Shown here: piece by piece, positions 6,523-7,675 of the stretch
Position numbering within the stretch: position 1 is the first letter of the stretch
Layout: every line of letters starts with the position of its first letter
Assembly: GCF_003334305.1 (NCBI RefSeq)
Contig: NZ_QOWS01000008.1
DNA: 64,000 nucleotides
From: Escherichia coli
GTDB lineage: Bacteria; Pseudomonadota; Gammaproteobacteria; Enterobacterales; Enterobacteriaceae
Reading direction: 5' to 3' (one strand)
Notes under the pieces: generated by a model
What the model was told of the DNA's origin: nothing
Databases searched by the model: none
The model's input: only the letters and a program-made list of their open reading frames with translations
Made by a program: the position numbers and the translations under genes

Positions 6523-6741
6523 ATGCAGGATTTATCATTGGAAACACGCCTGGCAGAGCTGGAGAGCCGACTGGCTTTTCAGGAAATCACCATTGAAGAA
6601 CTGAACGTCACGGTGACCGCTCATGAAATGGAGATGGCGAAACTGCGCGATCATCTGCGTCTGCTGACCGAGAAGTTAAAAGCCAGCCAGCCGTCGAACA
6701 TCGCGTCGCAGGCTGAGGAAACGCCACCGCCACATTATTGA
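6523..6741 (+). CDS. slyX: Protein SlyX
   Basis: 72-aa [51 protein letters not shown]... Confidence 0.9.
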
Positions 6742-6746
6742 GGCGT

Positions 6747-6773
6747 AAAAAAAGCGGGGATTCCCCGCTTTTT
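6747..6773. terminator. Bidirectional intrinsic terminator between convergent slyX and slyD
   Basis: aaaaaa-gcgggg-att-ccccgc-tttttt: a perfect hairpin flanked by an A-run and a T-run, so it works on either strand. Confidence 0.75.
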
Positions 6774-6789
6774 TGTCACCTTTTCGGTA

Positions 6790-7380
6790 TTAGTGGCAAC
6801 CACAACCGCCGTTGCCTTTACCGCCACAGCAACCTTCGCCACCGTGTTCATGACCGTGATCGTGGCCATGACCGCCGCAGCAACCGTCGTGGTCGTGATC
6901 GTGGTGATGATCGTGCGCGCCGTGAACGTGGCCATGAGCCAGTTCTTCTTCGGTCGCTTCGCGAATCGCCACAACTTCAACGTTGAATTTCAGGTTCTGA
7001 CCGGCCAGCATGTGGTTACCATCAACCACGACGTGATCGTCTTCAACCGCAGTGATTTCAACCGGTACCGGACCCTGGTCAGTTTCAGCCAGGAAACGCA
7101 TACCTACCTGCAGTTCATCAACGCCCATAAATACGTCTTTAGGAACACGTTGCACCAGGTTTTCGTCGTACTGACCGTAAGCGTCGTTCGCGCCAACAGC
7201 GACATCAAATTTGTCGCCAACTTCATGACCTTCCAGCGCCGTTTCCAGGCCAGAGATCAGGGAACCGTGACCATGCAGGTAGTCCAGCGGCGCACTCACC
7301 GGAGACTCATCAACCAACACACCGTCTTCTGTACGTACCTGATAGGCCAGGCTGACCACCAGGTCTTTTGCTACTTTCAT
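6790..7380 (-). CDS. slyD: FKBP-type peptidyl-prolyl isomerase / metallochaperone SlyD
   Basis: 196-aa ORF MKVAKDLVVSLAYQVRTEDGVLVDESPVSAPLDYLHGHGSLISGLETALEGHEVGDKF... with the characteristic His/Cys/Gly-rich C-terminal tail. Confidence 0.95.
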   Translation of the reverse strand: MKVAKDLVVSLAYQVRTEDGVLVDESPVSAPLDYLHGHGSLISGLETALEGHEVGDKFDVAVGANDAYGQYDENLVQRVPKDVFMGVDELQVGMRFLAETDQGPVPVEITAVEDDHVVVDGNHMLAGQNLKFNVEVVAIREATEEELAHGHVHGAHDHHHDHDHDGCCGGHGHDHGHEHGGEGCCGGKGNGGCGCH

Positions 7381-7474
7381 GATATCTCCTGAGCATGGGA
7401 AGAATAGTGGCGCAGATTGTAGCGGAATTCTGCAGCCGTGTACTCACTAGCTTAAAAAAACTCGGCGCATATCG

Positions 7475-7675
7475 CTAGTCCGGATGAAAAATCCCGATCA
7501 CTTGCTCATCTTTGCGAACGTGATCGCGGGCTTCTTTGTCTGCTTCTCGCATCTGGTGTCCGCACTTAACGCATTCAACAATATCAATATTATTTTCGCG
7601 CCACATCGCCATTGAATCCTGCGCCTGACAGGCCGGGCATTTTGCGCCCGCAATAAAACGTTTTCGGATTGCCAT
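7475..7675 (-). CDS. yheV: Small zinc-ribbon protein YheV
   Basis: 66-aa ORF MAIRKRFIAGAKCPACQAQDSMAMWRENNIDIVECVKCGH...; two CxxC pairs. Confidence 0.85.
   Translation of the reverse strand: MAIRKRFIAGAKCPACQAQDSMAMWRENNIDIVECVKCGHQMREADKEARDHVRKDEQVIGIFHPD

Follow-up and report, generated by a model that had tools for sequence, protein, structure and literature searches.

The gene on the minus strand at 6790–7380 of the window, the 64,000-nucleotide stretch of Escherichia coli DNA analysed here, is the ordinary chromosomal slyD of this species, and the three open frames that overlap it look like non-coding by-products of its sequence. slyD and its nickel-binding tail are already known and have been characterised for decades, and the window carries the reference allele. 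We are close to certain of this account as a whole, namely a known slyD in its majority allele, overlapping frames that arise as by-products, and selection on the SlyD frame only; no result of the analysis speaks against it. Gene identity, the forced open frames, the substitution pattern and the allele catalogue are results of the present analysis; nickel binding and the role in hydrogenase maturation are taken from the literature.

Table 1. Features in and around slyD, with positions in the window
Feature	Position	Strand	Description
slyX	6523–6741	+	convergent with slyD; named by NCBIfam search
Apparent by-product ORF, 81 aa	6735–6980	−	+1 sense frame of slyD; spans tail and terminator
Apparent by-product ORF, 82 aa	6738–6986	+	opposite strand to slyD
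Bidirectional intrinsic terminator	6747–6774	both	A7-GCGGGG-ATT-CCCCGC-T6, between convergent slyX (+) and slyD (−); read from sequence
slyD CDS	6790–7380	−	196 codons plus TAA stop at 6790–6792; FKBP-type peptidyl-prolyl isomerase, chaperone and Ni metallochaperone
Tail-coding DNA	6793–6936	−	residues 149–196, 48 residues; from residue counts, function from the literature
Shadow ORF, 199 aa	6793–7392	+	antisense frame in codon register with slyD, over its full length
Tandem repeat, 6/12-nt	6886–6915	−	encodes HDHHHDHDHD, residues 156–165; Tandem Repeats Finder; indel hotspot
Putative Shine-Dalgarno AGGAG	7386–7390	−	5 nt upstream of the slyD ATG (7378–7380); read from sequence
yheV, zinc-ribbon protein YheV	7475–7675	−	named by NCBIfam search

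Identity and genomic context of slyD

The slyD product of the window is identical at 196 of 196 residues to full-length E. coli SlyD (PDB 2KFW_A) and reaches 426.8 bits with the NCBIfam equivalog NF008008 (cutoff 174), covering positions 1–196 of the 196 in the profile. [quoted passage not shown] The equivalog score, the FKBP domain with its IF insert, the His/Cys-rich tail with its HGHxH motif and the gene context all agree with membership in SlyD.

The slyX-slyD stretch of 751 bases (window 6700–7450) recurs at 98–100% identity in every one of the 5426 complete E. coli genomes, where it is annotated slyD/slyX, and slyD occurs in one copy in each; the RefSeq protein of the matching genomes is WP_000861334.1, annotated slyD. 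In CFSAN061769, which encodes WP_000861334.1, the same stretch is 100% identical to that of the window, and the gene order fkpA-slyX-slyD-yheV-kefB carries the same annotation in this strain and in K-12. The assignment to chromosomal slyD therefore follows from the protein identity, from the matches in all 5426 genomes and from the gene order. K-12 SlyD (PDB 2KFW, full length; PDB 2K8I, residues 1–165; WP_000861334.1) is the identical protein, with the same domain order and chromosomal neighbourhood, and the slyD CDS of K-12 MG1655 differs from that of the window at six positions only, all of them synonymous third positions and four of them in the tail.

As RNA, the terminator that separates the two convergent genes has a folding energy of −21.7 kcal/mol on one strand and −22.2 kcal/mol on the other, with z-scores of −4.2 and −4.5. 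It went unreported in a scan for consensus promoter and terminator patterns and is clear on folding both strands. The C-run at 6763–6766 within it varies by ±1 base among E. coli strains. A structured RNA was also considered as an explanation of the region and was dismissed: an Rfam scan of the entire 64-kb window at the gathering threshold matched no family.

Composition and function of the C-terminal tail

The tail of SlyD contains 15 His, 6 Cys, 16 Gly, 5 Asp and 2 Glu residues. It starts with the conserved HGHVH motif (His149, His151 and His153, nt 6922–6936) and ends with GGCGCH. The peptide quoted in a preliminary description of this DNA, ...HGHVHGAHDHHHDHDHDGCCGGHGHDHGHEHGGEGCCGGKGNGGCGCH, exactly matches the C-terminal end of the 196-aa minus-strand ORF. 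The same description had placed the tail at 6790–6900; the location is right, while the end coordinate is too low, as 6900 omits the first 12 tail codons. It had also ascribed the tail to GC-rich imperfect codon repeats, of which the GC richness is borne out, with 62% at 6793–6930 versus 53% in the remaining slyD and 52% in the window. The repeats are weakly true at the DNA level, where Tandem Repeats Finder returned a sole array of 30 nt (period 6/12, score 33–44, about 2.4–3.3 copies).

The view of the tail as a known nickel-binding domain agrees with the literature (PMC7055735, PMC12284835). The tail is disordered and binds up to seven Ni(II) per protein with sub-micromolar affinity, and nickel binding reversibly inhibits the PPIase activity of SlyD (PMC7055735). 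The tail is needed for hydrogenase activation: the truncated form SlyD155, in which only His149, His151 and His153 are left, binds one Ni and does not activate hydrogenase in vivo (PMC7055735). SlyD serves as a Ni store that supplies HypB (PMC12284835). In SlyD, an FKBP domain with an inserted IF domain is followed by the 48-residue tail, which according to the literature stores Ni(II) and passes it to HypB for the maturation of [NiFe]-hydrogenase. From its identity to the characterised protein, we infer binding of several Ni(II) and a role in hydrogenase maturation via HypB for the SlyD of the window.

Frames kept open by the tail peptide

ORFs 6735–6980, 6738–6986 and 6793–7392, which had been attributed to the codon repeats of the tail, were found at exactly these coordinates. 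Over the tail region, four of the six frames are without a stop and two are closed. We recoded the tail peptide in 5000 synonymous versions, using either the local codon usage or uniform usage, with the same outcome under both: the frames sense+1, anti+0 and anti+2 were stop-free in 5000 of 5000 recodings, and sense+2 and anti+1 were closed in at least 99.4% of them. A random, composition-matched stretch of 48 codons is open with P ~0.23–0.28 per frame. The extra frames stay open because the codons CAY (His), GGN (Gly), TGY (Cys), GAY (Asp) and GAR (Glu) give no TAA, TAG or TGA in those registers; any gene encoding the SlyD tail peptide would thus show four open frames of six. The pattern of four open frames over the tail is not due to chance, yet it is uninformative.

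GC-rich repeats are not its cause, since all synonymous recodings open identical frames and the amino-acid composition suffices. The proposal that the tail generates the overlapping stop-free frames stands for 6735–6980 and 6738–6986, whose ends lie within about 50–60 nt of the tail on either side. It fails for 6793–7392, in which the tail makes up 144 of the 600 nt, the other 456 nt lying outside it.

A shadow frame along the whole gene

The 6793–7392 frame is open across the folded domains because slyD is devoid of TTA, CTA and TCA, the sole sources of antisense stops in that register; its 14 Leu codons and 5 Ser codons include none of them. If codons are used as in the 55 annotated genes around slyD (NZ_CP042969.1, 1–40751; window 1–27451), the probability that slyD contains no TTA, CTA or TCA is ~0.12, and recoding of the 148-residue core left the antisense frame open with a probability of 0.117. 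Of these 55 genes, 17 have a fully stop-free codon-aligned antisense frame, among them tuf (394 codons), rplB, rpsC and rplE. The openness of 6793–7392 over the core is a codon-usage effect, that is, a cause separate from the tail: avoidance of TTA, CTA and TCA in slyD, as in the nearby ribosomal-protein genes and tuf, leaves the shadow frame open over the folded domains.

Shadow ORFs, i.e. codon-aligned antisense ORFs, of strongly codon-biased genes are a general annotation artefact. slyD resembles tuf, rpsC, rplB and rplE in having such a frame open through absent TTA, CTA and TCA; it differs from shadow ORFs generally in that its tail composition opens two further frames, hence the overlap of four frames of six. 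With 17 of 55 genes having an open antisense frame, ORF lists around slyD will include many long shadow ORFs.

Substitution pattern in slyD and in the overlapping frames

Five strain comparisons yielded 35 nucleotide differences in the slyD CDS, and all 35 are third-position differences that are synonymous for SlyD. Read in the overlapping ORFs, the differences are non-synonymous in 5/6 (K-12) and 9/10 (14EC033) cases for the 81-aa ORF, in 6/6 (K-12) and 10/10 (14EC033) cases for the 82-aa ORF, and in 6/6 (K-12) and 11/11 (14EC033) cases for the 199-aa ORF, which gave 1/1 and 10/10 in two further strains; the counts for ORFs reaching into intergenic DNA cover K-12 and 14EC033 only, 2014C-4135 and 746 having a 1-bp intergenic indel. 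This indel, a 1-bp length polymorphism of the C-run at 6763–6766 in the terminator loop, frameshifts the 81- and 82-aa ORFs in 2014C-4135 and 746. The three overlapping ORFs look non-coding, by-products of slyD, because the strain differences never alter SlyD and nearly always alter those ORFs; judged by these substitutions, selection acts on the SlyD frame only.

Could one of these ORFs, for instance the antisense 6793–7392, nevertheless be a genuine overlapping or antisense protein-coding gene? We regard this as extremely improbable, even though the 199-aa antisense ORF is slightly longer than slyD (196 aa) and shows no disruption in the other four E. coli strains that were examined. Indeed, codon usage and tail composition fully account for its openness, the equivalent frame recurs in 17/55 neighbouring genes, and its product is of low complexity, rich in Ala, Thr and Val as the mirror of the His, Gly and Cys codons. 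All strain nucleotide differences alter this product, whereas none alters SlyD, and the 81- and 82-aa ORFs are frameshifted in some strains by the terminator-loop indel. ORF callers will list the 199-aa antisense ORF and the two ORFs of ~80 aa over the slyD tail, none of which deserves gene status.

The synonymous strain differences cluster in codons 149–196, which represent 24% of the gene: inside the tail lie 4/6 of the differences to K-12, 7/11 of those to 14EC033 and 6/10 of those to strain 746, these comparisons sharing polymorphisms and being non-independent. Every synonymous difference in the tail is a transition at a two-fold site ending in C/T or A/G.

Tail-length alleles within E. 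coli

Tail length had been described as varying between strains. Variants do exist, but they are restricted to less than 1% of the genomes, and the window has the standard 196-aa allele. At least 24 and at most 43 (0.8%) of the 5426 complete E. coli genomes carry a length variant, the upper figure being set by identity bands as the number of records with less than 95% identity (42 of them at 90–95%). The records at 90–95% might have formed a divergent lineage rich in SNPs; at least 24 of the 43 are length variants. Rare alleles were reached by querying in turn with the variant alleles of L006/P0004, NCTC9038 and E2348/69.

Four lengths differ from the reference. The 192-aa allele (−12 nt; at least 15 records) comes in two protein versions, HDHHHDGCC and HDHDHDGCC, and the 194-aa allele (−6 nt; at least 7 records) includes four EPEC E2348/69 / O127:H6 assemblies. 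The 201-aa allele (+15 nt) was found in at least 1 record (MB10), its protein being also recorded on 103 contigs elsewhere, and the 209-aa allele (+39 nt) in at least 1 record (ERP001), where a duplication adds a third Cys pair. Each of these indels is in-frame, and residues 1–148 are identical among the 192-, 194-, 196-, 201- and 209-aa alleles. The −12, −6 and +15 nt indels map to the His-Asp repeat at 6886–6915 (NCTC9038, H1827/12, 2013C-4830, PEC422, E2348/69 and MB10), which is also where the +39 nt duplication in ERP001 has its start. The protein WP_000861334.1 is found in four sampled natural strains with DNA around the tail that is 95–99.5% identical to the window.

Errors of sequencing or assembly in a repetitive GC-rich stretch are a very improbable source of the length variants. 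Erroneous slyD entries do exist in databases, as frameshifted 214-aa products and as out-and-back double frameshifts (P0074 and P0110), but all four variants change the length by a multiple of 3, four independent E2348/69 / O127:H6 assemblies agree on the 194-aa allele, the 192-aa allele is carried by five EC0026B derivatives and by several unrelated strains, and the 201-aa protein recurs on as many as 103 contigs.

Real alleles would be explained by in-frame gain and loss of His-Asp repeat units, presumably by replication slippage given the position of the repeat, which would change the tail length occasionally. Identical protein alleles are found on differing synonymous haplotypes (192 aa in H1827/12 versus 2013C-4830; 194 aa in PEC422 versus E2348/69), which suggests recurrent, independent events.

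A stronger version of this idea would make the His-Asp repeat a contingency locus, in which slippage adaptively tunes the length of the tail, and so Ni storage or PPIase regulation, between lineages. It could draw on the four non-reference lengths, on the three of four indel types that fall within the 30-nt repeat with the +39 nt duplication starting there, on the independent origins suggested for the 192- and 194-aa proteins by their different synonymous haplotypes, and on the span of 25–69 residues that the tail covers between species. We consider it unlikely. Few genomes have a length variant (at least 24 and at most 43 of 5426), and the 196-aa protein is unchanged across strains with slyD-region DNA 95–100% identical to the window. 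A contingency locus is a long homopolymer or a many-copy short repeat that, by changing its length, switches a frame on and off at high frequency, whereas the repeat of slyD has ~2.4 copies of 12 nt, far below classic phase-variable tracts, and changes in-frame in <1% of genomes. The fact that all changes are in-frame fits purifying selection together with occasional neutral slippage.

Marginally less likely still is that the rare, recurring in-frame gains and losses in the His-Asp repeat (and in HDHDGCCGGHGHD in ERP001) are non-neutral and tune Ni(II) storage by SlyD or the regulation of HypB; if this were true, EPEC E2348/69 (194 aa) or ERP001 (209 aa, with its third Cys pair) would have a different nickel economy. 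The natural alleles of 192, 194, 196, 201 and 209 aa could be used as ready variants for work on Ni stoichiometry or IMAC contamination. A non-exhaustive keyword search of the literature found no paper on natural intraspecific tail-length alleles of E. coli SlyD, and for slyD tail polymorphism it returned engineered strains only (LOBSTR, NiCo21-type and IMACulate).

The tail across Enterobacterales and in related systems

Large variation in tail length is a matter of differences between species and not within E. coli. In 96 intact Enterobacterales relatives, the tail has 25–69 residues, with 8–25 His, 3–9 Cys and 0–3 CC pairs; the tail has the HGHVH start, its GCGCH end is present in 75 of the 96, and the E. 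coli tail, with 48 residues, 15 His and 6 Cys, equals the median of these relatives. The tail has been described as variable among SlyDs (PMC7055735), in agreement with the range of 25–69 residues. The SlyD proteins of Salmonella, Citrobacter, Klebsiella, Serratia, Yersinia, Dickeya, Pantoea and Photorhabdus share the core, the HGHVH start and usually the GGCGCH end, while the central part of the tail differs greatly among the Enterobacterales orthologues, unlike the conserved core.

SlyD from Thermus thermophilus (PDB 3CGM) and the truncated E. coli SlyD155 have the same FKBP and IF core, with the HGHxH site for one Ni/Zn (PMC7055735), and are without the extended His/Cys tail of full-length E. 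coli SlyD. Other Ni chaperones, namely Klebsiella aerogenes UreE and Helicobacter pylori Hpn, Hpn-like and HypB, likewise bind several Ni(II) through a disordered, His-rich segment (PMC7055735). The carrier proteins are, however, unrelated to SlyD, and Cys pairs are noted for the SlyD tail. For function, the SlyD tail is reported as required, whereas that of UreE is dispensable (PMC7055735).

Frameshifted and unusual slyD records

Seven of the best 120 database relatives (P0010, P0012, P0046, P0072, P0083, P0106 and P0115) are 214-aa frameshift products, and P0074 and P0110 are SlyD entries with an out-and-back double frameshift. The frameshifted SlyD entries have 214–256 aa and read from the tail into the +1 frame (ORF 6735–6980) and through the terminator; they probably stem from errors in sequencing or assembly, or represent genuine pseudogenes. 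When slyD is frameshifted in the tail, a 214-aa product results, since the +1 sense frame has no stop across tail and terminator: a single-base error there meets no nearby stop and gives a plausible-looking 214-aa "SlyD" in public protein collections. In P0007, a 196-aa SlyD from a Logan assembly, most of the tail His residues are replaced by Tyr (AYGYVYGAHDYYYDYDYDGCCGGYGYDYGHEH). This matches a systematic C-to-T change at first codon positions and looks like a data artefact of deamination or conversion chemistry and not biology.

Among the E. coli matches to the tail, that of the engineered expression strain NiCo21(DE3) (NZ_CP053600.1, 685–1488) is the weakest. Its slyD has no stop codon, and a "carbohydrate-binding protein" CDS comes next in the same frame; slyD is fused there to a carbohydrate-binding module, and RefSeq labels this slyD an incomplete pseudogene. 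One of the 5426 slyD matches lies on a plasmid-labelled record. In FDAARGOS_943 (NZ_CP065615.1), the match begins at query base 57 and falls in two places in the record, and in JALPOT010000010.1 (2241–2361) a gene with an HTH_38 domain lies 134 nt downstream of slyD, at the place of slyX in L006, near the contig end; these two records may point to some strains in which slyX, or the DNA next to it, has been rearranged or has received an insertion.
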